Positions 11,874 through 62,911 of a stretch of DNA of 64,000 nt are shown piece after piece (the stretch's first letter is position 1; each line of letters begins with the position of its first letter). The DNA is from an uncultured Candidatus Saccharibacteria bacterium (GTDB taxonomy: Bacteria > Patescibacteriota > Minisyncoccia > Phycocordibacterales > UBA9973). The notes below the pieces were generated by a model, which saw nothing but the letters and a program-made list of their open reading frames with translations, was not told the origin of the DNA and searched no databases. Both the position numbers and the translations under genes were made by a program. The stretch covers positions 9,418-73,417 of the forward strand of contig CAYSMH010000002.1 in NCBI GenBank assembly GCA_964432275.1. The letters run 5' to 3'.

Positions 11874-13010
11874 ATGAAAATCCTACTCACAGGCGGCGGC
11901 ACTGGCGGACATTTCTACCCACTTATAGCGATTGCCGAAGAACTCAACAAGCTGGCAGACGAAGAGCGCATCATCAACATGAAGCTCTATTACATGTCAG
12001 ATAAACCATATGACCCTGATATACTCGAGGAGCAATTCATTACATTTATCCCAATTACTGCAGGGAAGCTGCGCATATATTTCTCGTTTAGAAATATACT
12101 CGACATTGGTAAAACGATCATTGGAGTCATCACGAGCTTGTTCAAGGTGTTTAAACTCTACCCTGACGTTATTATTTCTAAGGGTGGCTATGCAGCATTT
12201 CCAGTACTTGTGGCAGCGAAACTTCTCCGTATACCAACCATTATTCACGAGAGTGATACCGTACCGGGAAGAGTAAACAAATGGTCGGGTACATTTGCTC
12301 GACGTATTGCGCTCTCGTATCCTGAAGCAGCGCAATACTTCGACTCAAAAAAAATAGCAGTAACAGGGCAACCGGTTCGCAAAAACTTTATTCACCCCGT
12401 ACGCGAAGGTGCTAAAGAATTTTTTGAACTTCCCAACAACTTACCTGTAATCGGTATCTATGCAGGATCACTCGGAGCAAAAGCAATCAATGACGTAGTT
12501 GTAAATATCGTTCCTGAGTTAATAAAAAAGTATCAAATTATCCATCAAACAGGGGAGAAAACTTATGACGATGTTACTACTGAAGTACGCATCTCTCTTG
12601 GAGATGACACCAAGCGTAGTCGATACAAGGCATTCAAATCACTCAACAGTGTTCAATCCAAAGTGTTTGCAGGAGCAGTAGATCTCGTCATCGGCCGTGC
12701 AGGTTCTAGTATATTTGAGTTTGCAGCATGGGGTAAACCATCTATTATCATTCCTGGTAGAGGTGAAGTATTTCATGGAGATCATCAACGCAAAAATGCA
12801 TACCACTATGCACGTACCGGTGCTTGTGTAGTCATTGAAGAGACAAACCTTACTGCATCAGTACTATTGAGTGAAATTGAATCTATTTTAAGCAATAAAG
12901 AGCTTTATGAGGCTATGAGTAAGCATGCCCATGATTTCTTTATTCCTACTGCAAGTCGAATGATCGCAACCGAAGCACTAACTATTGCTCTATCTCACGA
13001 GAAACAATAA
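11874..13010 (+). CDS. murG: UDP-N-acetylglucosamine--N-acetylmuramyl-(pentapeptide) pyrophosphoryl-undecaprenol GlcNAc transferase
   Basis: N-terminal MKILLTGGGTGGHFYPLIAIAEEL (MurG G-loop); upstream GTG extension to 11760 overlaps ftsW and is rejected. Confidence 0.85.
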   Translation: MKILLTGGGTGGHFYPLIAIAEELNKLADEERIINMKLYYMSDKPYDPDILEEQFITFIPITAGKLRIYFSFRNILDIGKTIIGVITSLFKVFKLYPDVIISKGGYAAFPVLVAAKLLRIPTIIHESDTVPGRVNKWSGTFARRIALSYPEAAQYFDSKKIAVTGQPVRKNFIHPVREGAKEFFELPNNLPVIGIYAGSLGAKAINDVVVNIVPELIKKYQIIHQTGEKTYDDVTTEVRISLGDDTKRSRYKAFKSLNSVQSKVFAGAVDLVIGRAGSSIFEFAAWGKPSIIIPGRGEVFHGDHQRKNAYHYARTGACVVIEETNLTASVLLSEIESILSNKELYEAMSKHAHDFFIPTASRMIATEALTIALSHEKQ

Positions 13011-13848
13011 AACCTTTTTGCTGTGCGTATACATACGTAAACGATGCTCCCAAGAAAAATATCTGAGCAGAGTAATATATCCATACCAACATACCTACAA
13101 GGGAGGATGCTCCTCCAAAAACGTCTGTGTGTACCAAAAGTTTGATGTACTCTGTAATGAGTATATTTCCTACCATAAACAGTACAGACGTAATACATGC
13201 CCCCATACAGACGACGCTCCACGGCAAGGTACGATTTGGCAGTACTCGATAGATAACCATAAACAAAATAGTACTCAAAACAAGTGGTACAACAACTTGA
13301 AACAGTGAGGCAACAAACGAGAGTTGCGGGAGTAAGTTTACGGTAGACTGTGCAATAGAAATGAAAAAAGTGAGTCCAATTGATACTGCAAGAAGAATTG
13401 CAAGAAGAGGAATGAAGGCTAGTACGGCTATTTTCTCATGAAGAAATATGCCTATCTTGCGAAGGAGAGAAGTATGCTTCTTTTTCAGTAAAGGTGTGAC
13501 ATCCCAAAGTTCATCAAGATCACGATCGAGCTCCGAAAACACACCAATAGCACCGATTAGAAATATTGTCGCACTGACCATGGCTGCACTGACCGAAATA
13601 TCTTGGAGTGGAGTATTGTGAAGTATTTCACTGATATACAACGAAGCATTGCTTCCTACGGTTACTACGAGCTGGTGCATCAATGCATTTTCAACAACAT
13701 CTTTACTAAAAAGTAGTGCTGCAGCACTCACTACCAGCACAATAAGAGGTACGAATGAGAGCATCGCATAGTAGGAGAGTGCTGCACCCATTCTTGGTGC
13801 GTTATGACTATTCCAGTGTCGGAAAGATTTAAGTATGAGAGTTTTCAT
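12982..13848 (-). CDS. YihY/BrkB-family membrane protein
   Basis: Motif GAALSYYAMLSFVPLIVLV followed by multiple TM helices; ORF track extends to a TTG at 13932, but that extension would contain the LexA-box promoter, so ATG 13848 is preferred. Confidence 0.7.
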   Translation of the reverse strand: MKTLILKSFRHWNSHNAPRMGAALSYYAMLSFVPLIVLVVSAAALLFSKDVVENALMHQLVVTVGSNASLYISEILHNTPLQDISVSAAMVSATIFLIGAIGVFSELDRDLDELWDVTPLLKKKHTSLLRKIGIFLHEKIAVLAFIPLLAILLAVSIGLTFFISIAQSTVNLLPQLSFVASLFQVVVPLVLSTILFMVIYRVLPNRTLPWSVVCMGACITSVLFMVGNILITEYIKLLVHTDVFGGASSLVGMLVWIYYSAQIFFLGASFTYVYAQQKGFIVSREIEQ

Positions 13849-13900
13849 ACCTTGTAGTATATATGTTTTTTGAAATTTAGACTTATCCACAGCTTTTTTC

Positions 13901-13929
13901 TTGCATGTGAACGAACGTTCACCTATACT
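13901..13929 (+). promoter_or_regulatory. sigma70-like promoter with an embedded Cheo-type LexA (SOS) box
   Basis: -35 ttgcat (13901-13906), 17-nt spacer, -10 tatact (13924-13929); the spacer is GTGAAC-gaac-GTTCAC, matching GAAC-N4-GTTC; lexA lies ~450 bp downstream on the same strand. Confidence 0.5.
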
Positions 13930-13974
13930 CAATACAGGTCGCGATTATTATAAATAACTTGTCTTACCACTTTT

Positions 13975-14163
13975 ATGACACGACACCAATACACACAAAA
14001 CATTCACAAACAACTACAAGCACTAAACAAAAGGATCGATTATAAAATCATGCACGGACAGAGTTATATAGATGATTCTCGCCGTCACAAAGCACTCTTA
14101 CGTCAAATCAGCCGACAAACAAAGCAAGGATTCCTCGCACGTTTATTTCCAAGTCTCGCATAA
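13975..14163 (+). CDS. small basic hypothetical protein (62 aa), candidate SOS-regulated sORF
   Basis: ATG ORF immediately downstream of the LexA-box promoter; no homology recognised; could instead be part of a long lexA leader. Confidence 0.3.
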   Translation: MTRHQYTQNIHKQLQALNKRIDYKIMHGQSYIDDSRRHKALLRQISRQTKQGFLARLFPSLA

Positions 14164-50283: not shown

Positions 50284-50347
50284 ACCCTTGAATTATACAC
50301 CTCTGTCGGATATAGTATGCAAGCACTTATATATGTCGCCACACACT

Positions 50348-50422
50348 GGCCCTATCGTCTATCGGTTAGGACGGAAGCTTCTCAAGCTTCAAAGCGGGGT
50401 TCGATTCCCCGTAGGGTCACCA
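50348..50422 (+). tRNA. tRNA-Glu (anticodon CUC) with encoded CCA
   Basis: Hand-folded: acceptor ggcccta/tagggtc (one G-U), D stem gtct/ggac, anticodon stem gaagc/gcttc with loop ttCTCaa, T arm cgggg-ttcgatt-ccccg, discriminator A then CCA. Confidence 0.8.
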
Positions 50423-50433
50423 TTTAGAGCTAG

Positions 50434-50447
50434 CCCGAGAAGGCTCA
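50434..50447 (+). repeat. att-like repeat copy 0 (cccgagaaggctca) 11 nt after tRNA-Glu
   Basis: Degenerate copy of the tRNA 3-prime end ccccgtagggtcacca. Confidence 0.45.
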
Positions 50448-50494
50448 TTAAGAGGTATTCTTGATTTAATTAAAATGCTAGGATTCCATTTGTA

Positions 50495-52885
50495 ATGAAA
50501 TTCCTAATTAACGAAATTAAAGAATGGAAGCATGGTTGGCTTCAATACCTCAAATACAGCTGGAAACTCACTGTATGGCTCTATATAAGCAGGTGGCGAC
50601 GACTTACCACTTTTCTCAATAAGCACTCTGGTCTAATACGGCGTAGCTTGTTTTTAGTAGTTGGTCTAATTGTGGCACTAGTTGTAAATCGTTTCAGTGG
50701 CATAAACTTCACACAAGACATATTGAGTAATTACCTGATTGCTCTTGGTGCAATGATTGGTGGCACAATTGCGATTGTATTCACGATTTCCATCTTTCTC
50801 ATTCAGAGCGCCGCGGAACTTTACTCATCGCAGTACTTTGAAGTATTTATACACGATTGGAGAGAAAAGTTTGTGTATTTTGTTGTAATAATAATCACAC
50901 TCGCTTTCTTTGGAGGCGGTCTATACATTGGAAGCCTGGTGGCCATTTCACTACTGGTTAGCTCTATTACTGTAATTGGATCCCTTATCCTGACAGGTGC
51001 AGTGTTTGCCTTGATAGACTGGCAATATAAAAATGTTCGTCAAAAACTGAACCCTTCCGAAGCAATAGCTTTCTTGGAAAAAGAAGGTGTGCGCTTCTTA
51101 AATAAATTACAATCTGATGCAGAAAAATTGGCTGATATCTTGCGCGCGAGGAATAGCGAGATAACTAAAGATATGGCACTCGCACAAGCATATAATCAGT
51201 TCTTACAGTCATTCATAACCAATCTCGATAGACAGCTTGAAAACCTCGTAGAAATATCTATGAAGCTTGCCGATAAACAGGAAGTTGCTACAACGAAGAG
51301 AGGTTTTACCGCAATTTACAATATCCTCGCGCGTTTCTTCGAGGCTAGAAAAACATCATCCTTAATTATTCCTTCGGGTATCGCATTTTTGGCTGTAGCA
51401 AGCGACAGTCAAACATTCTTGAATAAGAATTTTGAAAGACTAAACAAGGCTGGCGAAAAGTTTATAAAAGAAGGTAAGGATGAAGTAGCAACCTATATAA
51501 TCGACGTATACAAAGCTCTAGCCTTGAAAGCAAAGGATATTAACTTTGTCAGTGGCAGAAATGAGAACCCTGTACTCGAACAATTGGTCGGCAATCTCGA
51601 TTTCTTTATTCAAAACGGCGAAAGAGCAAAAAATGTGGAAGTTGTATTTCAAGGCGCACGTGTTCTTACCGATATCGCTGTAATTGCTGCTGACAAAGGA
51701 CTTGATGCAATGCTGCGAGGTATTCAACAGAAGTTATTGCGAATAGCTATCTTTGCAATTACAGAAAAGCAAGGTGTCATTATAGATAGATGTAATACCT
51801 CATTCCAAACAATAATCGGCGCAGTTTTTGGAAGCTCTCGAATTGCTCGTAGATTTCATTTTGATGACAGCTTGAAGAATATCGCTACCATAGCAACATA
51901 TCTTTCTAATTTTATAAAAAGCGGGCTGTACCCAAATGATATAGGTTCAAAGTTTACATTAAGTAAGGCATACGATGAGTTGTACGTCCTTATTGTGAAT
52001 ATATACAATCACTACCCCGAGATTACAGGAGTCAGAGAAAAAGACAGATACCGAGGTGACTTTGTGGAATTTCTTGAAGAACTATACTCAAGCTTGAGAA
52101 ACCTATCAGAGAAAATAAAAACTGCCGACAATACGCTCACAGACAGTATTGGACGACTACTTTTCAATATAAATAATCTTATTGCTGTCGCCATTGAAAA
52201 CCCAGAATATGCATCAAATAAAGTCGAGCTATTAAGACGATTAAGCTGGAATATCTATCTTCCAACTTGGTTCGCGAGTCACAGCGATAAATTCGATGCT
52301 GGTTCAAACGCATTTAATACGTTTGTGGATGGTATAGCAAAAATAGGTATTATAGCTGCACAAAATCTTGGCGACAAAAAAGTAGTAAGCGCTTGTGTCG
52401 AAAGTATTTTTTCACTTACAAAAACAAGCCTAGAGAAAAATACCGACAGTCACGGCTACGATGAGCCTCGTATTCTGGAAAAAGCGTGCTATCTAGGGAT
52501 TCTAGCTCTTAAAAAAGATTGGGATGATATTTTTGTTGATGTTGCAATGAAGATATATGAATTTGAGCCGCTCTACGCAGCAAAGTACTTCTCAAACATT
52601 CCTGCTGGTATCGATCCAGAAAGACTTTCCCCGAAAAAGAAGCAGTTGACTATCGAGCTTTGGAAGTGGCGACACGATTTCGATAGAGAGCTTATGAACG
52701 GTATGTTGCGGATAAGAGACGATGCCGAAGCAATGATGTATGAAGTAATTGATACTTACGACATAGATAAATTTATTTTTAAGGTTTGGCAAACTTATGA
52801 TGTAAATACGAAATTTGGACAAGAAATGGAGTTAAAATTAGCAAGAGAAGCACTTATCAAGGTTCTGAAAAAACTTAAGAAGTAG
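50495..52885 (+). CDS. hypothetical large membrane protein (796 aa): N-terminal 4-5 TM helices plus ~600-aa helical cytoplasmic domain
   Basis: ATG ORF, AT-rich; first gene of island; no recognised catalytic motifs. Confidence 0.55.
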   Translation: MKFLINEIKEWKHGWLQYLKYSWKLTVWLYISRWRRLTTFLNKHSGLIRRSLFLVVGLIVALVVNRFSGINFTQDILSNYLIALGAMIGGTIAIVFTISIFLIQSAAELYSSQYFEVFIHDWREKFVYFVVIIITLAFFGGGLYIGSLVAISLLVSSITVIGSLILTGAVFALIDWQYKNVRQKLNPSEAIAFLEKEGVRFLNKLQSDAEKLADILRARNSEITKDMALAQAYNQFLQSFITNLDRQLENLVEISMKLADKQEVATTKRGFTAIYNILARFFEARKTSSLIIPSGIAFLAVASDSQTFLNKNFERLNKAGEKFIKEGKDEVATYIIDVYKALALKAKDINFVSGRNENPVLEQLVGNLDFFIQNGERAKNVEVVFQGARVLTDIAVIAADKGLDAMLRGIQQKLLRIAIFAITEKQGVIIDRCNTSFQTIIGAVFGSSRIARRFHFDDSLKNIATIATYLSNFIKSGLYPNDIGSKFTLSKAYDELYVLIVNIYNHYPEITGVREKDRYRGDFVEFLEELYSSLRNLSEKIKTADNTLTDSIGRLLFNINNLIAVAIENPEYASNKVELLRRLSWNIYLPTWFASHSDKFDAGSNAFNTFVDGIAKIGIIAAQNLGDKKVVSACVESIFSLTKTSLEKNTDSHGYDEPRILEKACYLGILALKKDWDDIFVDVAMKIYEFEPLYAAKYFSNIPAGIDPERLSPKKKQLTIELWKWRHDFDRELMNGMLRIRDDAEAMMYEVIDTYDIDKFIFKVWQTYDVNTKFGQEMELKLAREALIKVLKKLKK

Positions 52886-52899
52886 AAAGCTTCAACTTC

Positions 52900-53349
52900 T
52901 TATTCCTCAACCCCACCATCTGAGGAGTAAATCTTCTCGTATAGAATTGTGAGAAAGCGTTTGGTGTGTTCAGGTATAGAAATAGATTGAAGTGTCTCCT
53001 TGAATACCTCTGGAAGCATTGTCATACCTAGCAAATCCATTTTCGCATTTGTACTATCAGGACCATTCTGATTTGCAGTCAAGAAGTGGTTAATTGCGAT
53101 TAAAAATTCATGAGAAGTAATGATGTCTTTGGAACGATACTGATCAAGCACGGCGGCAAGTTCACTCTCCATGTCTTGAGTTGTTTGATACACCATCTCA
53201 AGGTCATTAATTTCTTTGGTATCGAGCTGCCCCTGTTCAAGTAGCTTTTTAGCGCAGTCATTTAGCACAAAGCGAAATTCAGCCTTGATGCTTGGAATAA
53301 CCTCTATCTTTGCTTGATCTATCTGATATTGTTCAAATTTTGGATTCAT
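52900..53349 (-). CDS. hypothetical protein (149 aa), downstream partner of the 1008-aa ORFan
   Basis: ATG ORF 5 nt downstream of the large gene on the same strand, implying an operon. Confidence 0.4.
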   Translation of the reverse strand: MNPKFEQYQIDQAKIEVIPSIKAEFRFVLNDCAKKLLEQGQLDTKEINDLEMVYQTTQDMESELAAVLDQYRSKDIITSHEFLIAINHFLTANQNGPDSTNAKMDLLGMTMLPEVFKETLQSISIPEHTKRFLTILYEKIYSSDGGVEE

Positions 53350-53354
53350 AGGAT

Positions 53355-56327
53355 TTATGCAGCTATTGATTCAACTTCTCTAGTAACTCGTTGCACTCCT
53401 TTATGCTGAAGCAATTTGTCCATATGATGATTGAAGCGATTGAGCAATATCTGCGATTTATGAATAATCATTTCTTCTGACGCTCCTTGCGTATAGTAAT
53501 ACCCCTCTCGCAAGGCACCTGTATCAAAGATTGATTGCTGTGGACTGCCGTCCATAATATCTCCATAATTTTCTTGCTTCATAGTATCGAGGACAGCTTT
53601 TGCATTAACGGGACTATTACTATCTTCCTGTGGCGGCTTCAAGAAGAAGTTATTGATATGAGTGAGCGCGTTCACAAAAGACTCGGTCTGTCTTCCGAAC
53701 ATATCACCACCGACTATCTGTATAGTAGCTGTAATATCCTTAACTTCTTTTCCTTCGGTGAGCTTTCTATTGCGTACAATATCAATATGCTCAGCTGTAT
53801 CAATATAGGAACCGTCCTTGGTAAGAACGTATCCATTGAGTTCGCTATCCACAAAAGAGGTGTTGTGCTGTTTAATAGCCTCCACAGTATCTGTCACTAA
53901 AGAAACCCATTCATAGAGAATGTCTCGCTCCTGGTCACTTTCAAATGGCTGTTGCAGCCAGCCATTATCAACCAGCATTTTCTCAAATTGGTCTGCAGTA
54001 GTAGGTATAGTGCCAAGGTCTGCAGTTTCTGATATGTATTTGTTGGCAATCTGCATGGCAATACCCGCATGATGTGACGTGAGAATTGCCTTTTCAAACT
54101 GCTCTACACTATCGGTTGCCATACCCTTGATTTCACAGCGACGACCTTTTTGTTCGCTATCCTCAAAATGATCAAAGTTCTTACTATGGATATCTTTTGT
54201 GTTGTTCACATCCTTACCAGCAGTTATTCCTGTAAGCTGTGCCATAGTCATAACGTTGTTCAAGAAATACATTTGACCATCTACTTCTAGCCCTCCATCC
54301 CCAACGAGTGATAGGTGGTACCCTCGAGCAGCCTTATCATACCGATCAAAATTAAAATCAAGGAAACCTGCATCTTGTAAAAGCTTAACCTCCGCCATGA
54401 GCATGTAGGGATTATAGTTAGGTCGTAGAGCAATTTCGTGAATACCATCATTACCTCTTCCAATATTTGCGCTCTTGCTCACTAGTTGGATATCTTTTTT
54501 GTATCCCAACATGCTCGTATTGCCATATTCCTCGCCAACAGACCCTGTGACTTCATATTCTATACCCATCGAAACTCTGGCATCTTTCGGGATTGCGTCG
54601 TGGTTATATTTGTTGAGCACGGTTTCTATTGATTCCATTTTCCCGACGAATTGATCAGGATTCTCTGTGCCGTACGCAGACAGTGCAATAGCGATCAGGT
54701 TCTGCCCCTTTTTGCCGTGTTGACTCTCAAACCGCTCCAAGATTTCCAAAATGCTTTTTGGCAGTCGCTCTCTATTTTCAGACGCCCAAAAAGATTCTTG
54801 AATGTGTTTATTGTTTAGTATCTTTTCCTCATTATTAATTCCGTTTTTTTCTTTATCCTGTATCTTTTCAAAGGCAATGTCATATACGGTAGACTGCTCT
54901 GAATAGCCATCTCTAAGGAATGGGAAGTTCTCGATAGTTCGTGCAGCTTCCTCAAAGTTTAACTCTTGCGCACGTATGTCTAATACATTCTTTATTTTCT
55001 CTTTGACTTCTTCAGACTCAAGAATCTCCTGCGGGATGCCATAGTGATCAATAAAATCAACTAATGTTTCTGGTCGTATAGATGCAATGCTTGGCAGAGA
55101 ATTGTATATGGTTTTTGTTATAACTTCTTTTTGTAAATCGAATTTCCTAATGATGTCATCAATGTCGCTACGGACAGAACTATCAGACCCATATTGTGTG
55201 ATTCTTGCCTCTATACATTTCAAGGCAGATCCCTGCATCTCCGGAGATGCAAGTGCTTCTCGAGAAAAATCAAAATATTCCAAAATCCTCTTTGTTTGGA
55301 AATAATGCTCTCCTCTTGGTAGAAATTTTAGCAACCCTTCCAATACTTTACTCTTGGTCTCTTCTGAGTTTTTCTCTTTTTCAAGGTTCTCAAATTTTGT
55401 AGCGATATTGAAGAAATCATAAAATCTACCTGTTGTTAGATAATCATTCAGAACATGCTTCAAAATTTCAGTTTTTACTTCACTGCTGAGATTCTTTGAT
55501 TTTTTTACGTATTCTATGGTTGCTTCAACTCGGCCATCTTGTATATCATTCTTGAGTACAGTAAAATCTTCTGCATCGATGCCTTGGAACTTATCCACAA
55601 ATTCCATTACATACCTTCCATATCCGAGCGCAGCAAGTTGATGAAATGCATCTTTGCTGTATTTGCCATCTGGCGCATTTTCAAGCGCACCATCAACTTG
55701 ATAGGTGTTTCTTTCTTTTGATTCCGCAAGTGCAATAAGAAATGACTCCGGTGCTGTGGTACAGGTACCATAACTTCCGAAGTAATTACCATGATCGGAA
55801 TCAGTGAGATTATTTTTGAATTTCGTCTTCAGCAGCGCCTCAATGTCTGATTCTGAGAATCTGTGTTTCTCCCCGTATCCCACTACATAGTCCCGAATAT
55901 CGCGTATGTTCCAGTTCTCATTTTCATAACTTTTGCTATATTTTTTTACATCGGAATAGTCCTCCTCATAGAGTAGCGCAATTTTTGCTTTCTTTACTAG
56001 CTCAGGATCAACTGGGATCTTTCTCGTGTAGTCACGACTATCTTCCAGTACTTTTCTAATTCTAAAATTCAACAAGTCTTTTGCCGCTACAATAGTTTCT
56101 TCCGGACCTTCGGTAAGTTGGTTATCTGCGGTCTGGATCGTCTTTACGTCCTCATACAAGCGATCCATAGTCTCCTGCTCATACTGCTCGAGCGATACTC
56201 CATCTGGTTTCATAATCTCCAAAAGTGGAACTATTTCTTTGTGATATATGGCTTCCGCCCTATCTGCAGCCGTTTCTTGGCTTTCCAGAGGGGTAATTTC
56301 TTCGAGCTGAGGGAGTGATTCTTTCAT
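53355..56327 (-). CDS. hypothetical very large soluble protein (~990-1008 aa); weak, unverified resemblance to GS-like amidoligase strands in one segment
   Basis: Continuous ORF to 56381 (alternative ATG; the first 18 codons look non-native, so MKESLPQ at 56327 is preferred); no Walker, HExxH or GxSxG motifs; segment RVSMGIEYEVTGS...NDGIHEIALRP...GYHLSLVGDGG has a GxExE-like pattern. Confidence 0.55.
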   Translation of the reverse strand: MKESLPQLEEITPLESQETAADRAEAIYHKEIVPLLEIMKPDGVSLEQYEQETMDRLYEDVKTIQTADNQLTEGPEETIVAAKDLLNFRIRKVLEDSRDYTRKIPVDPELVKKAKIALLYEEDYSDVKKYSKSYENENWNIRDIRDYVVGYGEKHRFSESDIEALLKTKFKNNLTDSDHGNYFGSYGTCTTAPESFLIALAESKERNTYQVDGALENAPDGKYSKDAFHQLAALGYGRYVMEFVDKFQGIDAEDFTVLKNDIQDGRVEATIEYVKKSKNLSSEVKTEILKHVLNDYLTTGRFYDFFNIATKFENLEKEKNSEETKSKVLEGLLKFLPRGEHYFQTKRILEYFDFSREALASPEMQGSALKCIEARITQYGSDSSVRSDIDDIIRKFDLQKEVITKTIYNSLPSIASIRPETLVDFIDHYGIPQEILESEEVKEKIKNVLDIRAQELNFEEAARTIENFPFLRDGYSEQSTVYDIAFEKIQDKEKNGINNEEKILNNKHIQESFWASENRERLPKSILEILERFESQHGKKGQNLIAIALSAYGTENPDQFVGKMESIETVLNKYNHDAIPKDARVSMGIEYEVTGSVGEEYGNTSMLGYKKDIQLVSKSANIGRGNDGIHEIALRPNYNPYMLMAEVKLLQDAGFLDFNFDRYDKAARGYHLSLVGDGGLEVDGQMYFLNNVMTMAQLTGITAGKDVNNTKDIHSKNFDHFEDSEQKGRRCEIKGMATDSVEQFEKAILTSHHAGIAMQIANKYISETADLGTIPTTADQFEKMLVDNGWLQQPFESDQERDILYEWVSLVTDTVEAIKQHNTSFVDSELNGYVLTKDGSYIDTAEHIDIVRNRKLTEGKEVKDITATIQIVGGDMFGRQTESFVNALTHINNFFLKPPQEDSNSPVNAKAVLDTMKQENYGDIMDGSPQQSIFDTGALREGYYYTQGASEEMIIHKSQILLNRFNHHMDKLLQHKGVQRVTREVESIAA

Positions 56328-56469
56328 ATTTTCTCTGGTGACCTCAGTATAACAACAGAGTATAAAAACACCATAAGGCATTAAAAGTCTCTATCTGTTA
56401 TAGGCTCACCTTTTAGAGAGCGCTCGAGTAGTGTCAAAGTTCTCTTATTTTATCTGTCTAAGATATAAT

Positions 56470-56904
56470 ATGTTTATGGAAATAATTGAAATGACATCAG
56501 AGCAAGAATCTGAATTAAAGATTTTCAAAGGACTTGTATGGCCTGAAGCCGACAAGGACCATTATGGCGAAAATCAACCAAATTTTTCTCGAGATGAATT
56601 TACATTGATTGCAAAAGAAGACAGTGAAATTGTCGGATACATCTCAGTTGTTATTGACACTGGTGTTGCACAAATTGAACCACTTATGGTTAAAACTGAT
56701 TTGAAAGGAAAAGGGATAGGAACAAAACTACTTCAAAGTGCTGAAGAAAAAGCAAAGGAGTTGGGGGTTCATAAGGTGTGGCTTGAAACCGGTTCTGACT
56801 GGCAAGCGAAAGGCTTTTATGAAAAACATGGCTATCAAGTTCGTAGTGTACTACCAAACCATTCAGGAGGAAAAGAATTTGTGTTAATGGATAAAATGAT
56901 CTAA
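56470..56904 (+). CDS. GNAT-family N-acetyltransferase
   Basis: IVGYISVVIDTGVAQIEPLMVKTDLKGKGIGTKLLQSAEEKAKELGVHKVWLET (acetyl-CoA-binding motif A); tataat immediately upstream; ORF-track GTG extension to 56431 rejected. Confidence 0.7.
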   Translation: MFMEIIEMTSEQESELKIFKGLVWPEADKDHYGENQPNFSRDEFTLIAKEDSEIVGYISVVIDTGVAQIEPLMVKTDLKGKGIGTKLLQSAEEKAKELGVHKVWLETGSDWQAKGFYEKHGYQVRSVLPNHSGGKEFVLMDKMI

Positions 56905-56907
56905 CAC

Positions 56908-56921
56908 CCGAGAAGGGTCAA
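56908..56921 (+). repeat. att-like repeat copy A (cccgagaagggtca)
   Basis: Identical to copy 0 except one base; lies right after the GNAT stop codon. Confidence 0.45.
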
Positions 56922-57056
56922 TTTAAAATCCAAGATAATAGTGAAATAACCTTACAGGGTAATGGATCAAAAGGTTCTATCTCGAAAAGGTTCACAGAAT
57001 CTGAGAAAGAAAAAAGCCGAACGGTTAGGTTCGACAAAAAATAATTAATTCCATAT

Positions 57057-57638
57057 CTACTCTGGTGAAAGCTGCAATCCTGCCTCTACTAACGCTTGGC
57101 TTATCTCGCTTGCAAACCGTTGCGCAAAGTTTCTGAATTTTATCAGGTCACTTTCTTTGTACTGAACTAAATCTCTCAGTTGAAATATTTTTGCCGAATT
57201 TAAGCAATTCTTTGCACGTACTGATATATTCAGATCATCGATCGTTAGCTTAGCAAGGATGTCTTCCTGTTCCTGAGTAAATCCATCTTCTGATAGTACC
57301 GAAGTCCAGAAACCACTTGGACGATTAAATGAGTACACAAAGCAACTTACCCTTTCAGCTGTAGGAATTTTGTGTTGAATAACAGTACCCAGAGCTTTGG
57401 CAAGCTTTTGTTTGACTGTAGAAGTACACATCGGTTTTTCGAACACCGTCGCTTCAACGACAATATCTGTTCCGAGACCGTATTGCATCAAATCAGATGG
57501 GTACAAGAGCGTCATATCTTTTTCGCTTTTGTAACCGAGTTCTTCAATACTGACAACTGCCGCAACAAGTGCGTTATGGAGGTCGTGCAGTTCCTTTTCT
57601 TCCATTTTCGGAAGACACCATGTTTTGATTACAGGCAT
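57057..57638 (-). CDS. fusion protein: tautomerase-superfamily-like N-terminal region (Pro-1) plus RNA polymerase alpha-CTD-like HhH domain
   Basis: Starts MPVIKTW...KELHDLHNALVAAVVSIEELGYKSEKDMTLLYPSDL (4-OT-like beta-alpha-beta with a Pro after Met); C-terminal LNISVRAKNCLNSAKIFQLRDLVQYKESDLIKFRNFAQRFASEISQALVEAGLQL matches the alpha-CTD pattern. Confidence 0.45.
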   Translation of the reverse strand: MPVIKTWCLPKMEEKELHDLHNALVAAVVSIEELGYKSEKDMTLLYPSDLMQYGLGTDIVVEATVFEKPMCTSTVKQKLAKALGTVIQHKIPTAERVSCFVYSFNRPSGFWTSVLSEDGFTQEQEDILAKLTIDDLNISVRAKNCLNSAKIFQLRDLVQYKESDLIKFRNFAQRFASEISQALVEAGLQLSPE

Positions 57639-57741
57639 ATAGAATAGTTTTGAGTTTAAAATGAATTTGCTCCCACTCTACCGTATTTATTGACAAAGTC
57701 AAGGTTGGGTTGTAATGTAATAAAAACTAAAACTTTTACAT

Positions 57742-58332
57742 ATGGTTAACGCAAGCAAAGTAAAGCAGCAACGCTTCTGGAATATGTGGCGCACATCTGG
57801 CGCCATAGGCACCATTACCACCTACCCCTCTGCGGTAGTTCGGGAAATTGACGGCCAATTAGTATTAGATGATCCAATGGCAGCCGCAATGATCCGGGCG
57901 ATAGAAAAGGATAACTGTAAAAATACATTCATCGTTCAAAAAGATCGGGTTGAACATTTCAAAAATAGAATGGCTCAAAAACAACTATCTCCGCAGGATG
58001 CAGTGATTGTACTGATTAATGCTGATGATGTTCACGGCACCGACCTTGCGGAGCACTTAATGCCTGGGACTGATTGGCAAGCCATGCGTGATAACGGCGA
58101 AATACCGTTCGCACACGGACTTACTACAAAGGAAGGTATGGTGGGCATCCTAAAACTCTTTGACAAAGAAGCATCAAAGAAATTAGAAAGAATGACGACC
58201 ACAGCTGTTGTGGTTGTCGATCACGGAGTTGCGGAGGTTTTTGATGCAGATAACCCGAATGGCGAAACAGTTATTCCATCTAGGCTGCCTGGGAGAATGA
58301 GACAGTTTATGAACGGCGACGGCGATTGGTAA
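57742..58332 (+). CDS. hypothetical protein (196 aa), divergent partner of the tautomerase/alpha-CTD gene
   Basis: ATG ORF; promoter ttgaca-17-taatgt with palindrome ttgacaaagtcaa in the shared 100-bp intergenic region. Confidence 0.4.
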   Translation: MVNASKVKQQRFWNMWRTSGAIGTITTYPSAVVREIDGQLVLDDPMAAAMIRAIEKDNCKNTFIVQKDRVEHFKNRMAQKQLSPQDAVIVLINADDVHGTDLAEHLMPGTDWQAMRDNGEIPFAHGLTTKEGMVGILKLFDKEASKKLERMTTTAVVVVDHGVAEVFDADNPNGETVIPSRLPGRMRQFMNGDGDW

Positions 58333-58457
58333 AAAGCCAAACAAAAATTTTGAGCCTGATTTTTTAGTCAGGCTCTTTTTATTGAAATATGGATTGTGAC
58401 AGATAGGTCTAACTTTATAAGGCAATTCCGTGTCACTTTTGTCACTTTTTATAGACG

Positions 58458-58471
58458 CACGAGAAGGGTCG
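58458..58471 (+). repeat. att-like repeat copy B (cacgagaagggtcg)
   Basis: Shares the 11-mer cgagaagggtc with copies A and C. Confidence 0.4.
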
Positions 58472-58516
58472 GTACGGAATATGGAAAATGGTAGAACGGG
58501 CATTGTGGGGCAAGGC

Positions 58517-58553
58517 GGAGCGGGGTTCTATCTCGAGAAGGGTCACCATTTTA
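58517..58553 (+). repeat. att-like repeat copy C / degenerate tRNA-Glu 3-prime half (gcggggttctatctcgagaagggtcacca)
   Basis: Aligns to the tRNA T-arm and acceptor 3-prime strand plus CCA (gcggggttcgattccccgtagggtcacca), but the T-stem no longer pairs; preceded by a D-arm-like tggtagaacg at 58488. Confidence 0.5.
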
Positions 58554-58565
58554 GAAAAAAAATCC

Positions 58566-58590
58566 TCACGAGGAGGATTTAAAAAATTTT
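58566..58590 (-). terminator. terminator hairpin downstream of 58589..59002 gene
   Basis: tcctc-acgag-gagga flanked by A/T runs. Confidence 0.4.
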
Positions 58591-59002
58591 ATTTCTTTTG
58601 AGTAGTAAAAACACCTGACAAGCTATAATATAGTACAGCTATAATCGAACTCCCAAAAAACAATGCCTTCAGTATGTTGAAAAAGTCCAGAGAATGAAAT
58701 AATTTTTCAATACTTACATTCATAATAAACATACTCCATAAACCAAACAAAATTATAGCTATACTCAATACATATAAGAGACTCCGAAATAACCTTGCTG
58801 TTGTCGATCGTTCTTTTTGATTCTTTTTTATTTTTGGAGACCCGTACACGACTATTGAAATGGTGATTATACAATAATTGAGTACAAAAAATAATGCAAC
58901 AATTTCCGCAATGTTTTGATTATTGGTAATATATGCAAATATTGCAACTATAATACTTAAACAAAAGAAAAATACACTGATATAAAACTGTTTAATGTTC
59001 AT
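58589..59002 (-). CDS. hypothetical small membrane protein (137 aa, 4 TM)
   Basis: AT-rich hydrophobic ORF. Confidence 0.4.
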   Translation of the reverse strand: MNIKQFYISVFFFCLSIIVAIFAYITNNQNIAEIVALFFVLNYCIITISIVVYGSPKIKKNQKERSTTARLFRSLLYVLSIAIILFGLWSMFIMNVSIEKLFHSLDFFNILKALFFGSSIIAVLYYSLSGVFTTQKK

Positions 59003-59095
59003 TTTTTATTTTTTTATAACACTATCATTTTTCTTGCATAAGTCAACACCATTCGACATCTGGAAGGAAAATCAAAAAATGAGTCCGCAAAAAAA

Positions 59096-59121
59096 CAAAC
59101 CCCCTTTTAAAAGGGGGTTTA
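59096..59121 (-). terminator. rho-independent terminator (24-nt perfect palindrome)
   Basis: aaacccccttttaaaagggggttt. Confidence 0.55.
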
Positions 59122-59139
59122 TGTAATCATGTTGTTCGG

Positions 59140-59562
59140 TTAGGCAACGGCCTGATGAGGGGTTGATTCATATTCTTCGATTTCTGTAGTAAATACCACT
59201 CTTCCCTTTTGCCATTTCGCAGTAGGAACAGTAGCAAGTATGAGCTCGGTAAACGAACGTTTGACGTACGGACCAATAGTGATACTTTGAAGTTGAAAAT
59301 AAAAATCGATAACCGTCGTAGGATCCGTAGCAGCATGTGATTTTACAAATCTTTTTGCTGCGGATATCCCACTGGTGCGAATCATATGTTCGATCGATAA
59401 AAAAAGTACTCCTATGGCAACGATATTGCATAGTATGGACACGATTATGGGGTGAATGAGTCCAATACGGATATTCAAAAGTGTTACCAATAGTATCGAA
59501 ATACCGAGTGAAATGCTAGAGCGATACCGCAGCAGACGAATGATTGTTTTCTCTGTATTCAT
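59140..59562 (-). CDS. hypothetical membrane protein (140 aa; 2 TM plus C-terminal soluble domain)
   Basis: ATG ORF with terminator; no motifs. Confidence 0.4.
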   Translation of the reverse strand: MNTEKTIIRLLRYRSSISLGISILLVTLLNIRIGLIHPIIVSILCNIVAIGVLFLSIEHMIRTSGISAAKRFVKSHAATDPTTVIDFYFQLQSITIGPYVKRSFTELILATVPTAKWQKGRVVFTTEIEEYESTPHQAVA

Positions 59563-59682
59563 GTTGTTAATAAGGGGTTTAAGGTTTGTTTCCTCTACAT
59601 TATCATATTATATTTATTTGTCAAGTATTCCCTGTCTCACTTTTTGACAACCGTTATTTATACGATATAGTAAAGAAAAACA

Positions 59683-60150
59683 ATGCTCATGGAAAATCAA
59701 ATAGAAAAACCTGTATACGAAACTGAATCTGCTATTCTTTCTTTTTCAGGAAGTGGTAACCTTTTTCTTTGTGACGACTATAATGCACCTATAAAAATAG
59801 GTAGCATCGTCTATCAATCAGTGCGCGCTGCAATGTTAGCGTACAAAACGAAAAACCCTCGTATAAAAACAAAAATTCGTAACGCAATCACTCCTGCAGA
59901 TCTTAAGGTACTAGAAAGAAGTATTAGTACCCCTTCATATTGGACCAAGGAGTACATTATTGCAAAAATGACTGAGCTTACAATACAAAAATTTATTCAA
60001 CATCCTCAGTTAAAAGCAAAATTCCTTGATACAAAACCTAAATCACTAAAAAACAAAACTGAACCAACACTTCAACGATTTGAGATCGATGAGGTGTGCG
60101 ACGAACAAACATACGCAGACATACTGATGAATGTTCGTGAACAACTCTAA
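59683..60150 (+). CDS. NADAR/YbiA (DUF1768)-like domain protein
   Basis: SIVYQSVRAAMLAYK, YWTKEYIIAKMTELTIQKFIQHPQLKAKFLDT and C-terminal YADILMNVREQL fit the NADAR pattern (yQA.Kf ... W...vM...l..KF.q...L...Ll.T ... LG.iLM.vR..L); promoter with 7-bp inverted repeat ttgtcaa/ttgacaa upstream. Confidence 0.55.
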   Translation: MLMENQIEKPVYETESAILSFSGSGNLFLCDDYNAPIKIGSIVYQSVRAAMLAYKTKNPRIKTKIRNAITPADLKVLERSISTPSYWTKEYIIAKMTELTIQKFIQHPQLKAKFLDTKPKSLKNKTEPTLQRFEIDEVCDEQTYADILMNVREQL

Positions 60151-60153
60151 ACC

Positions 60154-60178
60154 AAAACCGCCTTTCGGCGGTTTTTTA
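60154..60178. terminator. bidirectional rho-independent terminator
   Basis: aaaaccgcc-tttc-ggcggtttttt. Confidence 0.6.
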
Positions 60179-60179
60179 A

Positions 60180-60860
60180 TTATGCAATATTTGCTTCTTT
60201 GAGTTCAGTAGGAAGTTCGGTGACAGGTTCCACAGTGATATCTTCGGTACCTCGGCGAGTAAGTGTGCGATACAGGTATGCGAGGAGAAGTGTCGCAAGT
60301 GGGTACGCGACGATGATACCAATACCAAACAGCACCATCCCTACTATCACCAGACACACAACAACAAGTATAGTCAGTAACACCGTCCAAAACACATCTC
60401 GACTGACAAGTCTCCATGAATCCTTGATCGCAGCGATTGCACCGCCTTTGTTATCCACAAGTGAGAGCTGAGAAAACACAAATCGCGTCATGAAATAAAT
60501 ACCAGGAATAATCAAAAGAAAGAATCCACCAATCACCATCAGTGCAGTCAAAAGTGCGACTTTAACAAGAAGAATAAATTGACGAAATGTCGGCAAATGT
60601 TTGCCTAGTGCACGAAACGAAAGCAGATCATGCTTGGCATCTACCGCAGCAAGCGACACAGATAGCCATACGTACGAAAAAATCAGAGACAGTATCATCC
60701 CAGCTATTTGCAAAAGAATATAGCGACCATCCTCGATTTGACCAGGTGCACTAAGAACAATAAGTATCACTGTCATACCTATGTAAAACCAAGGTCGTTC
60801 TTTAAATATGCCCCAGCAGGTACGGAGCGCTGTTTTGATAGAAAAGGTAAATGGAGTCAT
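60180..60860 (-). CDS. hypothetical polytopic membrane protein (DUF975/YciC-like topology?)
   Basis: Start MTPFTFSIK at 60860 (4-nt overlap with ftsI stop); ORF-track extension overlaps ftsI and is rejected; ~6 TM helices. Confidence 0.5.
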   Translation of the reverse strand: MTPFTFSIKTALRTCWGIFKERPWFYIGMTVILIVLSAPGQIEDGRYILLQIAGMILSLIFSYVWLSVSLAAVDAKHDLLSFRALGKHLPTFRQFILLVKVALLTALMVIGGFFLLIIPGIYFMTRFVFSQLSLVDNKGGAIAAIKDSWRLVSRDVFWTVLLTILVVVCLVIVGMVLFGIGIIVAYPLATLLLAYLYRTLTRRGTEDITVEPVTELPTELKEANIA

Positions 60861-60864
60861 AAAT

Positions 60865-62583
60865 TTAGCGGTCAGGTGGTAGCTCGTAATAGTTACCCAA
60901 GAATTGTACCATATCAAAGAATGGATCACCGAGGGTTTGTATTGCAAAGAGTGCTTCTTTGGGGTAGACGTTAAACAAGTACAAGACAAAACGAGGCTGT
61001 GATGCAGGGAAAAATCCGATAAGTGAGTGTAGGTTACGGTCAGTATAGTAGCCCGTACCATCAGGACGTGCTATCTGTGCGGTTCCTGTCTTTGCGGCCA
61101 CACTATAGTGTGGCAGCCCTCTATCATAGCCTTCATCCACGACTCGCACAAGCATACTTCTAATTGTAGTAATCGTCTCGGGTTTGAGTAACTGCTTACT
61201 CGATGGCTCTGGTTCTATAGTGCGTTCATAACCGCTTTGTTCTATGATCGATGTTGCAATATGTGGCGTTACGAGCTTGCCACCATTGGCAAGTGTTGCA
61301 AATCCGCGCACGATATTGATCGGGCTCGTCGCGATACCCTGTCCAAATGATGCGGCTGCAAAGTTGATATCGTTGCCCCCTTTAATACTACCCACTGAGC
61401 CGTTGACTTCTCCCGGGAGATCGATACCTGTTTTTTCTCCGAGCTTGTATCTATCGACAATATATTCACGGAACTTTTCCTTGCCCATTTTTTGCTCGAC
61501 AAAGATCATGCCAGTGTTGAGAGATTCGTTAAGCACCTGTTGCATAGATACGCCATTACCGCGACCCTTTTTGTCAAAGTTGTTAAGCGTCTTGCCGTCG
61601 ATTGTGACTGACCCCGAGTCGTTATAACTCGTCGTCGGCGTGACAACACCCTCATTAATCGCACCCGCCATTACGAGTGGCTTTACGATGGACCCCATTT
61701 CGTATCGAGCCTGCGCAAAAGGGTTGGTATAGACACTTGGATTTTTAACTCCCCCGTACTCATTGAGATCAAAGGTTGGAACTCCAGCCATAGCAACAAT
61801 CTCCCCGGTATACGGATCCATCACAATACCACCTACTACATCACTACTCCACGCGCGCTCAATACTAGCGATGGTTTGTTCAAGTTGTGACTGTACGGTT
61901 GGCTCAATAGATGTAACCACATCTCCAGTAGATGTTGTGTTTTTAAATACACCACTTTTTACATTGGCAAATATTTCTGCGAAAAAGTTTACATAAAAGT
62001 TGTTCGCATCGCGAGAAAGTATATCGTTGTAGTACTCCTCAAGCCCGTTGTTACCCGAGAGCAGATCCTTCTTGTACGAAACAAAGCCGATCACGCGGGC
62101 CGCTAGATCGTTGCCTGGATAAAAGCGCCATTTCTCTCGATAGAGCGAGACACCTGGGAGTCCGAGCTCAGTGAGACGTGCAGCATTATCTTCAGTAATA
62201 CGGTTTTCTATTTCTTCGTATGGGTCATTTTTCTTGGCAGCTTTGGCAAGAAATACATCACGATCGATTGGAACAATCGCATTGATCAAGTCATACGCAC
62301 GCTCGGGATCAACCAATGTACTTGGATTAATCGCAAGCTTAAACCCGCTCACAACAGTCGCAGCCGCAACTGTTGTCGCGTCTTTGGTAGTCATATAAAT
62401 ATTACCCCGATCAAAACTAGCCGTGGTCGGAGTTATATAGTTGCGCTGTGCTTTTTCTTTATATCCAGTTGTGTTGATGATTTGTAATACAAAAAGACGC
62501 ATCACAACAACAGCTCCGATGCATACAACAACACCAATAAGAGTACGAATACGTGATCGATGTATCGTATTAGCGTCCGACAT
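60865..62583 (-). CDS. ftsI: penicillin-binding protein 2 / FtsI-type peptidoglycan D,D-transpeptidase
   Basis: N-terminal TM, dimerisation domain, transpeptidase motifs (SIVKP region for SxxK, SYN for SxN, KTGTAQ for KTG); ATG 62583 (MSDANTIHRSRIRTLIGV). Confidence 0.85.
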   Translation of the reverse strand: MSDANTIHRSRIRTLIGVVVCIGAVVVMRLFVLQIINTTGYKEKAQRNYITPTTASFDRGNIYMTTKDATTVAAATVVSGFKLAINPSTLVDPERAYDLINAIVPIDRDVFLAKAAKKNDPYEEIENRITEDNAARLTELGLPGVSLYREKWRFYPGNDLAARVIGFVSYKKDLLSGNNGLEEYYNDILSRDANNFYVNFFAEIFANVKSGVFKNTTSTGDVVTSIEPTVQSQLEQTIASIERAWSSDVVGGIVMDPYTGEIVAMAGVPTFDLNEYGGVKNPSVYTNPFAQARYEMGSIVKPLVMAGAINEGVVTPTTSYNDSGSVTIDGKTLNNFDKKGRGNGVSMQQVLNESLNTGMIFVEQKMGKEKFREYIVDRYKLGEKTGIDLPGEVNGSVGSIKGGNDINFAAASFGQGIATSPINIVRGFATLANGGKLVTPHIATSIIEQSGYERTIEPEPSSKQLLKPETITTIRSMLVRVVDEGYDRGLPHYSVAAKTGTAQIARPDGTGYYTDRNLHSLIGFFPASQPRFVLYLFNVYPKEALFAIQTLGDPFFDMVQFLGNYYELPPDR

Positions 62584-62911
62584 TCCACGCAACAGCACGC
62601 TGAGATGGTGCAAATGAAATTGTTGAAGGTTCGACAAACCCTTTTTCTCGAGCGTAGCTTTCGGTCAACACTTTTTGTGCAGAGAGAAACTCCAGCTCTT
62701 CTGCTCCCATTGATGAGATAAGTGCGCGTGTTTCCTGCTGCAATTCTTTTTCTTTCACCACTGAAAATGTGATTGCTCCAACGAAATACACATACCCGAC
62801 AAAGAGTACGCCAGCGGCGATCCAAGTATAGAGCGTGATTGATTTCAATGTTTTGTTGATATCAAATGCTCCGTGATGAGCGGTATGGGTATGTCGGAGT
62901 GTGGTGTTCAT
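62570..62911 (-). CDS. ftsL: FtsL/DivIC-like cell-division protein (single TM plus coiled coil)
   Basis: 113 aa; TM helix ITLYTWIAAGVLFVGYVYFVGAITF then coiled-coil; position between rsmH and ftsI. Confidence 0.5.
   Translation of the reverse strand: MNTTLRHTHTAHHGAFDINKTLKSITLYTWIAAGVLFVGYVYFVGAITFSVVKEKELQQETRALISSMGAEELEFLSAQKVLTESYAREKGFVEPSTISFAPSQRAVAWNVGR

Follow-up and report, generated by a model that had tools for sequence, protein, structure and literature searches.

A tandem array of recombinase-less modules behind a patescibacterial tRNA-Glu gene, probably assembled by stepwise site-specific insertion

Introduction

How does a block of genes that carries no recombinase come to lie, as a row of tandem units, directly behind a tRNA gene? 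The question is raised by a stretch of 64,000 nucleotides from an uncultured Candidatus Saccharibacteria bacterium (assembly GCA_964432275.1, contig CAYSMH010000002.1; the whole stretch is referred to here as the window), in which a variable block of 9.1 kb (50421–59568) separates a tRNA-Glu(CUC) gene from a gene for a NADAR-domain protein. Candidate Phyla Radiation (CPR)/Patescibacteria have very small genomes, and gene exchange among them is poorly documented. A reading of the letters alone (the original prediction) had proposed a horizontally acquired, AT-rich island anchored at the tRNA-Glu 3′ end and marked by four degenerate attachment-site (att)-like repeats, with neither a tyrosine nor a serine recombinase. 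We find that the block comprises three recombinase-less modules, M1–M3, followed by a variable tail, and we think it likely that the modules were inserted stepwise and site-specifically at the end of tRNA-Glu by an enzyme of a large serine recombinase (LSR) family. In the site-specific tandem insertion itself we have high confidence; the LSR family is favoured as the catalyst with more modest confidence.

Results

Insertion at the tRNA-Glu 3′ end

For comparison, metagenome-assembled genome (MAG) loci of relatives, all of the Paceibacteria/Nomurabacteria type to which the window also belongs, were gathered via the flanking RmuC protein. Two close relatives, L003 (RmuC 98% identical) and L009 (80%), keep both flanks and have none of the island genes, their gene order being Gmad2, tRNA-Glu, gap, NADAR, membrane gene, ftsI, ftsL and mraW, with 2.1 kb (L003) or 0.65 kb (L009) between tRNA-Glu and NADAR. 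The window and L003 are homologous at the nucleotide level up to 50420, the C after the discriminator base of the tRNA, and again from 59569, just past the start codon of a 140-residue gene. Synteny thus bears out the predicted horizontal acquisition at the tRNA 3′ end. The predicted extent, to 60178, was too generous: the variable block ends at 59568, and the NADAR gene and the 293-residue gene that follows it are native and syntenic in the relatives. Several MAG and Logan contigs end at or beside tRNA-Glu, as expected of a strain-variable spot. The block is also AT-richer than its flanks, as had been claimed, albeit modestly: its GC content is 0.39 versus 0.436 for the rest of the window, a difference of ∼1.3 standard deviations (1-kb windows, standard deviation 0.034), and 18% of the non-island 1-kb windows likewise have a GC content of ≤0.40, so that composition alone would not carry the case for an island.

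The gap in L003 is itself occupied. At the same spot it holds an ATP:guanido phosphotransferase gene (12655–14091, reverse strand; arginine-kinase-like, Pfam 1.4e-72), uncommon for a CPR bacterium, together with two small open reading frames (ORFs), and a 105-residue ORF beside the kinase gives a weak deaminase-toxin match.

Attachment-site junctions

The terminal bases of tRNA-Glu(CUC) are ...GGGTCAC, of which TCAC (50417–50420) is the left half of the attachment site. Four composite junctions, A–D, lie on the forward strand and all close in TCAC, at 50420, 56409, 56995 and 58546 (Table 1). These cores divide the array into three modules, one of them a GNAT acetyltransferase gene alone; the tandem modules of the original prediction are real, and their borders move to the TCAC cores. 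Its four repeats are likewise real, and two more had been missed (56385–56437 and 56973–56995). Exact copies of the 11-mer CGAGAAGGGTC start at 56909, 58460 and 58534, and a copy with a single mismatch starts at 50436; all four lie on the forward strand (four matches against 0.53 expected; none of 100 shuffles reached four), and no exact copy was found in 1.2 Mb of related loci.

The repeat copies come in pairs, made up of a core arm X, GGTTCTATCTCGAGAAGGGTCAC, and a partial copy S, CTA(G/T)CNCGAGAAGGNTCA. Sites C and D align over their full length, a GGG(T/C)AA(T/G)G block included, and in each a 53-nt spacer places the 11-mer starts 74 nt apart; the 23-mer of C (56973–56995) matches that of D (58524–58546) at 21 of 23 positions (shuffle maximum 17), which leaves two substitutions in X. 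Junctions A and B agree at 24 of 33 ungapped positions with equal internal spacing, a score that 0 of 1000 shuffles reached. Spacing is thereby kept within both pairs, at 28 nt from the core to the S motif in A and B and at 74 nt from the 11-mer to the core in C and D. The layout of A, tRNA-CCA followed by 7 nt and CTAGCNCGAGAAG, also occurs after tRNA-Glu in L014 and L044, and twice in L080.

The last copy, at 58517–58553, had been predicted to retain T-arm-like sequence, acceptor strand and CCA, and does so: it aligns to tRNA positions 46–76 plus 6 nt (T-arm through CCA, into tttaga) over 37 nt with a score of 37, against a shuffle maximum of 23. The X arm nevertheless differs from the tRNA end at 6 of 23 positions, whereas the tRNA keeps its own sequence, in line with the predicted nature of the repeats as att-type sites with a common element-borne sequence rather than decayed copies of the local tRNA.

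Presence and absence of M3

Look-ups of the exact proteins led to two independent Logan assemblies from different samples, L131 and L133. The former equals window positions 50344–59714 at 100% identity (9371 nt). The latter is 99.4% identical across M1 and M2 and lacks exactly 1551 bp, which is M3. Its junction reads ...ctcgaAaaggTtcac|cattttagaaaaaaaatcc, keeping both C-specific bases (cgaAaaggTtcac) and continuing into the right flank of D; this combination places the exchange within TCAC. The same right flank, cattttagaaaaaaaa, which begins cattttag, thus comes after TCAC at D in the window and at C in L133, and the hairpin terminator that accompanies it is shared with the 137-residue gene of the tail. 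As identity between C and D is unbroken over 13 bases at most, assembly collapse at k=31 offers no explanation. We read the difference as a probable excision or insertion of M3 at its att sites, which may represent either loss or gain. The event is recent, since L133 and the window otherwise differ by only a few dense patches of single-nucleotide polymorphisms (SNPs).

These differences fall into three patches (53230–53454, 55575–55749 and 58739–58958; 175–225 nt each, 6–13% divergent), with identity elsewhere, and the two strains diverge most in the 137-residue gene. This pattern points to recombination over short patches between strains or to a mosaic make-up of the Logan contigs.

The composite site in other contexts and its link to a recombinase

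An exact search of a metagenome collection for GGTTCTATCTCGARAAGGKTCAC returned three contigs only, L128, L129 and L130, with an identical 23-mer. Each holds the whole ∼93-nt composite, comprising the partial copy, equal spacing with GGGTAATGAAT and the identical 23-mer, and the genes beside it differ from those of the window: a small ORF in L129 and L130, and in L128 the end of a gene whose product resembles, by eye only, sigma-factor region 4. The occurrence of the composite as a whole next to different genes implies that the site is element-borne and was not derived from the local tRNA. An nhmmer profile of the composite found no further copies across 1.4 Mb of loci. Viral contigs were considered as a further source and rejected, as none of the 45 matches to the 15-mer CGAGAAGGGTCACCA reached past the query pattern, which marks them as chance, and the 19-mer core had no match.

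On contigs L129 and L130 the composite runs, at ...GGGTCAC|caagagagacattcgcg, directly into what is left of the 3′ part of an LSR gene. This caagagagacattcgcg also stands behind the live tRNA-Glu of L007, where it is part of an intact LSR (Resolvase, Recombinase and Zn_ribbon_recom domains). Intact LSR genes adjoin tRNA-Glu at TCAC in L007, L077, L136, L137 and L138; those of L136–L138 encode proteins 87–90% identical and stand at the UUC isoacceptor with the junction ...GGGTCAC|ccaaagaaacg, and the L077 LSR is 44% identical. The family is widespread in Paceibacteria, with 6823 matches at E ≤ 1e-30. The far end of the LSR elements reads ...AATTAGTTCAC|flank, so that the two ends have only TCAC in common, and AAAGTGTATAATTAGTTCAC|flank is found at this end in L136, in L137 and in the L129 remnant. 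A search for tRNA-end repeats within the L136 and L137 elements found none. The right arms of the cassettes (c(a/t)tttAGAG...), of the LSR elements (caagAGAGAC or ccaaAGAAAC) and of the unoccupied L009 site (caatcGAAAC) all have an AGA-rich motif 4–6 nt from TCAC, a resemblance that may weakly point to one recombinase family.

Several features of these relatives are of note in their own right. The LSR gene lies between perfect inverted repeats of 130–131 nt in L007 (3132–4798), L136, L137 and L138, and in L137 (7581–11544) a cargo of a PemK toxin gene and a 380-residue gene lies between 297-nt inverted repeats of 99% identity. The two repeat pairs of L137 meet at a TCAC core, so that three recombination sites alternate in orientation, an arrangement that resembles a double invertible segment beside tRNA-Glu. 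The LSR ORF continues via the P′ arm antisense through the tRNA-Glu gene (533 residues according to gene callers; L007 3074–4675, reverse strand; L077 3–845; L136 6465–8066; L137 10001–11602), which means that the integration target itself, the tRNA gene, provides the final ∼20 codons.

Other material lies at the same target. Downstream of tRNA-Glu in L044 (12455–20482) are the perfect palindrome CTCGTGCTAGCACGAG and then a reverse transcriptase with a DUF3223 partner, followed by a 439-residue LSR (3 kb from tRNA-Glu), a kinase of the APH type and the large subunit of a terminase. This insert is a larger mobile element or prophage remnant; its LSR region contains no repeat structure marking ends. 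A different displaced copy of the tRNA end, gtgACCGAnTTCCCGGTAGGGTCAC, stands 115–160 nt past the live tRNA-Glu in L080 (6798–6965, reverse strand), L034 (+131/+3354) and L078 (+161) as gene-less mini-insertions, and in L080 the near-palindrome GTCGTGCTAGCACGAG follows the displaced copy, with a second junction of the same kind 0.9 kb further on. Among the tRNA-Glu 3′ ends of relatives (L003, L010, L020, L026, L027, L034 and others), most have no encoded CCA, and TCAC is followed by A. The CCA-bearing genomes include ones with an insertion starting in ‘ca’ (the window, L007 and L044), where the apparent CCA may be partly contributed by the inserted DNA.

Proposed mechanism

In the stepwise model, the exchange core would be TCAC, which runs over the discriminator base into the CCA as far as its first C. 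Each module would once have been a circle with a single site, X-TCAC|right arm, in which the left arm is tRNA-end-like (in M2 and M3 the conserved ∼93-nt composite ending in GGTTCTATCTCGAGAAGGGTCAC) and the right arm is module-specific, starting c(a/t)tttAGAG... or agaatctGAGA.... Such a circle would enter by exchange at TCAC, its partner being either the end of tRNA-Glu or, after an earlier insertion, the junction nearest the tRNA; the tRNA would be left intact, the new right arm would land after it, and the X arm and all older DNA would shift downstream. By this order of events M3 would be the oldest insertion, M2 the next and M1 the newest. The model has A and B look like a tRNA or X followed by a right arm and C and D look like a left arm followed by X, and it has the composite of L129 stand where the tRNA stands in L007.

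Recombination of X in C with X in D would yield the L133 chromosome and an M3 circle by precise excision. The implied junctions would be ...GTAGGGTCAC|CATTTTAGAAAAAAAATCC for the empty site, ...CTCGAGAAGGGTCAC|AGAATCTGAGAAAG for the M3 circle and ...CTCGAAAAGGTTCAC|CTTTTAGAGAGCG for the M2 circle. The reconstructed M2 site, CTATCTCGAAAAG-gttcac-CTTTTAGAGAGCG, has by eye a dyad symmetry of 10 of 13 positions; that of M3 and M1 is weaker, and the sites are few for statistics. As the most likely catalyst we regard an LSR of the family found at this TCAC of tRNA-Glu in related Paceibacteria, which may be encoded elsewhere in the genome, may reside on a co-resident element or may have been lost.

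Several observations weigh against this model, in particular against its enzyme. Family scans of the island ORFs (Pfam, PHROGs, NCBIfam, PADLOC) and a tblastn search of the 64-kb window with the LSR detected no recombinase, as had been predicted for the block. The left arm of the LSR elements, AAAGTGTATAATTAGTTCAC, is unlike the tRNA-like arm of the cassettes beyond TCAC, which leaves it unproven that one enzyme serves both sites, and a tRNA-like arm is more typical of the attP sites of tyrosine integrases. Canonical LSRs recombine only attP with attB, whereas the building of an array needs hybrid sites, although the Ccr recombinases tolerate such sites. Junction B is degenerate and has no upstream 11-mer, and the composite occurs in only three other contigs. 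Loss of M3, finally, could arise by slippage or by homologous exchange between the 21/23-identical 23-mers, and a random crossover in the 23-mer would fall within its last 4–5 nt about one time in five.

Alternative explanations

The best surviving alternative, which we nonetheless consider improbable, is that the modules are classical tRNA islands of tyrosine integrases, inserted in tandem through an attP carrying the tRNA 3′ end and later deprived of their integrase genes; the original prediction had assumed an attP of this type. The 37-nt resemblance of the distal repeat to the tRNA, from T-arm to CCA, is the usual footprint of such islands, and the repetition of one motif in direct orientation inside an att site is reminiscent of arm-type binding sites. 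The element arm, however, cannot regenerate a functional T-arm (cgggg/tcgag unpaired, making the T-stem impossible), and every inferred exchange lies 3′ of all differences, inside TCAC. Neither the island nor the sequence beside the composite on L128–L130 contains a tyrosine recombinase, and the sole recombinase tied to this tRNA-Glu nucleotide in relatives is an LSR. A core of 4 nt common to the sites, together with the LSR found at this very nucleotide in relatives, makes the recombination look like that of an LSR.

We also think it improbable that the block is a fixed variable region whose repeats are relics and whose strain differences arose by homologous recombination or slippage. The patchiness of the SNPs between L133 and the window is what gene conversion between strains would give, the tail (58547–59568) varies among relatives without an att border and is followed by homology that restarts in a shared promoter region, and the degenerate state of junction B would suit a relic. 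What this account leaves unexplained is that the 23-mer core is identical, and the 93-nt composite conserved, across unrelated genomic contexts, that all junctions close at the same TCAC, and that the breakpoint of the M3 indel falls at TCAC even though the 23-mer provides no more than 13 bp of unbroken identity further 5′.

A role of the repeats as regulatory elements or functional RNAs, be it as terminators, as processing signals or as tRNA-like RNAs, is scarcely credible: they are intergenic, lie at transcription-unit ends and in one case span a tRNA-sized 74 nt, but they give no Rfam match or ARAGORN tRNA call, which together with a weak consensus fold (−5.8 kcal/mol, no compensatory pairs, no covariation) rules out the 74-nt unit between the paired motifs as a pseudo-tRNA or structured RNA, their acceptor-like strands are direct rather than complementary copies, and the absence of the block in relatives and the precise M3 indel would go unexplained.

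Modules, tail and flanking genes

The modules have their own terminators and mixed gene orientations, as judged from a terminator scan (Table 1). Searches of the island ORFs against defence-system (PADLOC), phage (PHROGs), Pfam and NCBIfam models gave nothing beyond the GNAT, alpha-CTD and NADAR matches and no defence match, and a PDB sequence search with the four largest uncharacterised proteins gave nothing except the alpha-CTD. That the cargo serves accessory envelope or regulatory functions is a guess of low confidence.

Table 1. Features of the tRNA-Glu locus (positions in the window)
Feature	Positions	Strand	Evidence and remarks
tRNA-Glu(CUC)	50348–50422	+	ARAGORN; Rfam tRNA 56.8 bits
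Module M1	50421–56409		5989 bp; three ORFan genes
Junction A, right arm of M1	50421–50447	+	tRNA ...GGGTCAC, c-atttagag, then S motif CTAGCCCGAGAAGGCTCA (50430–50447)
M1 796-residue protein	50495–52885	+	Several N-terminal membrane helices; no family match
M1 149-residue protein	52900–53349	-	No family match
M1 1008-residue protein	53355–56381	-	No family match; start may be at 56327
Junction B	56385–56437	+	aagtctctatctgttataGGCTCAC (degenerate tRNA-end-like arm), cttttagag, agcgctCGAGTAGTGTCa; TCAC 56406–56409
Module M2	56410–56995		586 bp; lone GNAT gene and terminal composite site
M2 GNAT acetyltransferase	56470–56904	+	Pfam Acetyltransf_1 4.6e-20; mechanical ORF from 56431
Composite site C	56904–56995	+	11-mer 56909–56919; spacer with GGGTAATGGAT; GGTTCTATCTCGAAAAGGTTCAC 56973–56995; nhmmer 8e-20
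Module M3	56996–58546		1551 bp; two genes, each with its own terminator
M3 193-residue protein, alpha-CTD-like C-terminus	57057–57638	-	Pfam RNA_pol_A_CTD 1.7e-17; PDB matches
M3 196-residue protein	57742–58332	+	Member of an uncharacterised CPR family
Composite site D, distal att site of the array	58455–58546	+	11-mer 58460–58470; 53-nt spacer; GGTTCTATCTCGAGAAGGGTCAC 58524–58546
Right half of the attachment site, presumably the original one (cattttagaaaaaaaa), with hairpin terminator	58547–58588	+	Terminator scan
Variable tail	58547–59568	-	Two small membrane-protein genes; GC 0.336 (lowest)
Tail gene, 137 residues	58589–59002	-	Small membrane protein
Tail gene, 140 residues	59140–59562	-	Small membrane protein
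Native DNA downstream	59569–61061	mixed	Synteny with L003 and L009 (tblastn and blastn); Pfam
NADAR-domain gene, native	59683–60150	+	Pfam; syntenic in L003 and L009
293-residue membrane gene, native	60180–61061	-	Syntenic in L003 and L009

The 1008-residue protein of M1 has only three detectable relatives besides itself, none of them at a tRNA and none with att-like sites. Its pairing with the 149-residue protein recurs at an unrelated locus in another MAG (L139/L140), at 48% and 46% identity. In other CPR genomes the 1008-residue and ∼148-residue pair stands as a unit between housekeeping genes (L139 4317–7998; L140; L141 4370–8071); as no tRNA or att-like site lies near it there, the pair also travels by some other route. 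The GNAT gene of M2 is called as 144 residues on the Logan contigs. The 196-residue protein of M3 belongs to a family that is common in CPR (347 homologues detected), one member of which lies downstream of tRNA-Glu (L142) but without the composite.

The tail has no att-like right border and is not common to the relatives; homology beyond it restarts in a promoter region shared with the NADAR gene. The small membrane ORFs beside NADAR in the window, L003 and L009 were considered as orthologues and ruled out, there being no BLASTP similarity among them. Homologous exchange between the flanks, which are conserved, may have substituted the present tail for an earlier one.

Upstream of tRNA-Glu lie genes for RmuC, a DUF3298 protein and a Gmad2-domain protein (Pfam). 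Beyond the 293-residue gene are a transpeptidase gene (ftsI type), an ftsL-sized ORF (113 residues, no Pfam match) and mraW. The mechanical ORFs of the 293-residue gene and of the transpeptidase (60865–62637), both on the reverse strand, overlap by ∼200 nt (60865–61061), and the true start of the former probably lies further downstream.

Discussion

The build-up of islands in this manner is known in kind. The novelty lies in the host group, in the terminal TCAC of tRNA-Glu as target, in how small the modules are and in the conserved 93-nt composite site. A literature search for serine-recombinase integration at tRNA genes in Patescibacteria found nothing relevant. The locus offers a testable case, with a 4-nt exchange point, a site usable to find further cassettes, a pair of strains one cassette apart and a candidate family of recombinases numbering in the thousands. 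If the link to the LSR family is true, such insertion could be a main route of accessory-gene flux in CPR/Patescibacteria, and a compact tRNA-Glu-specific LSR with its sites would be a candidate genome-engineering tool. It is conceivable, though we regard it as doubtful, that the array is not decayed but a working cassette-capture platform, fed by a Paceibacteria pool of minimal cassettes of 0.6–6 kb that each carry a ∼93-nt site and are moved in and out of the TCAC end of tRNA-Glu by a very widespread family of tRNA-Glu-specific LSRs acting in trans; this would amount to a serine-recombinase analogue of the integron in ∼1-Mb genomes with few known mobile elements.

The closest described case is that of the ssrA islands of Dehalococcoides, which lie in tandem downstream of the tmRNA gene, with direct repeats of the 3′ end of that gene as the borders of each island (McMurdie et al. 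2011, PMC3146451). They carry an element-borne motif unmatched in the RNA gene and a serine recombinase of ∼540 residues, encoded on the reverse strand and adjoining attL, and 15 of them, about half, are without an integration module and are read as cis-mobilizable (PMC3146451). The array described here is similar with respect to its tandem units downstream of a small stable-RNA gene, its 3′-end repeats and its element-borne motif. In contrast, the ssrA islands insert in the T-loop of tmRNA with a 20-bp repeat, whereas tRNA-Glu is targeted here at its 3′ terminus, and the core measures 4 nt; the host is a CPR bacterium, the modules are as small as 0.6 kb and the array holds no integration module.

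In staphylococci, the LSRs CcrAB and CcrC place staphylococcal cassette chromosome (SCC) elements in tandem at the 3′ end of orfX/rlmH, and recombinase-less psi-SCC cassettes with the same short flanking repeats persist there and can be moved by the recombinase of another cassette. Tandem build-up at one chromosomal site is common to both systems, whereas the target gene, host and site sequences are different, and we know of no SCC counterpart to the ∼93-nt composite arm with its duplicated core motif.

The modules also fit the definition of cis-mobilizable elements (CIMEs) and of accretion, with direct att sites on both sides and no integration or transfer genes. CIMEs have att sites on both sides, lack integration and transfer genes and accrete in tandem at the 3′ end of a target gene; they are described as decayed integrative and conjugative or integrative and mobilizable elements that used tyrosine integrases and conjugation, of the ICESt1/ICESt3 type (PMC5704250). 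Unlike CIMEs, no conjugation genes are seen here, and the modules look like minimal cassettes rather than products of decay.

Like integron cassettes, the modules are short, mostly of one or two genes, have no recombinase of their own, carry one site each and are stacked newest first. Unlike an integron, the array has no IntI, attI or common promoter and no conserved hairpin in its sites, and its cassettes have their own terminators and mixed orientations. An integron is ruled out on these grounds (no IntI, no attI, no attC hairpin, cassettes with their own terminators), and a classical tyrosine-integrase island fails as a description for want of an integrase and of an element arm that would rebuild the tRNA. 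The array does have the exchange feature of LSR systems, namely a very short core without long identity between the partner sites, as seen both in L133 and in the LSR elements.

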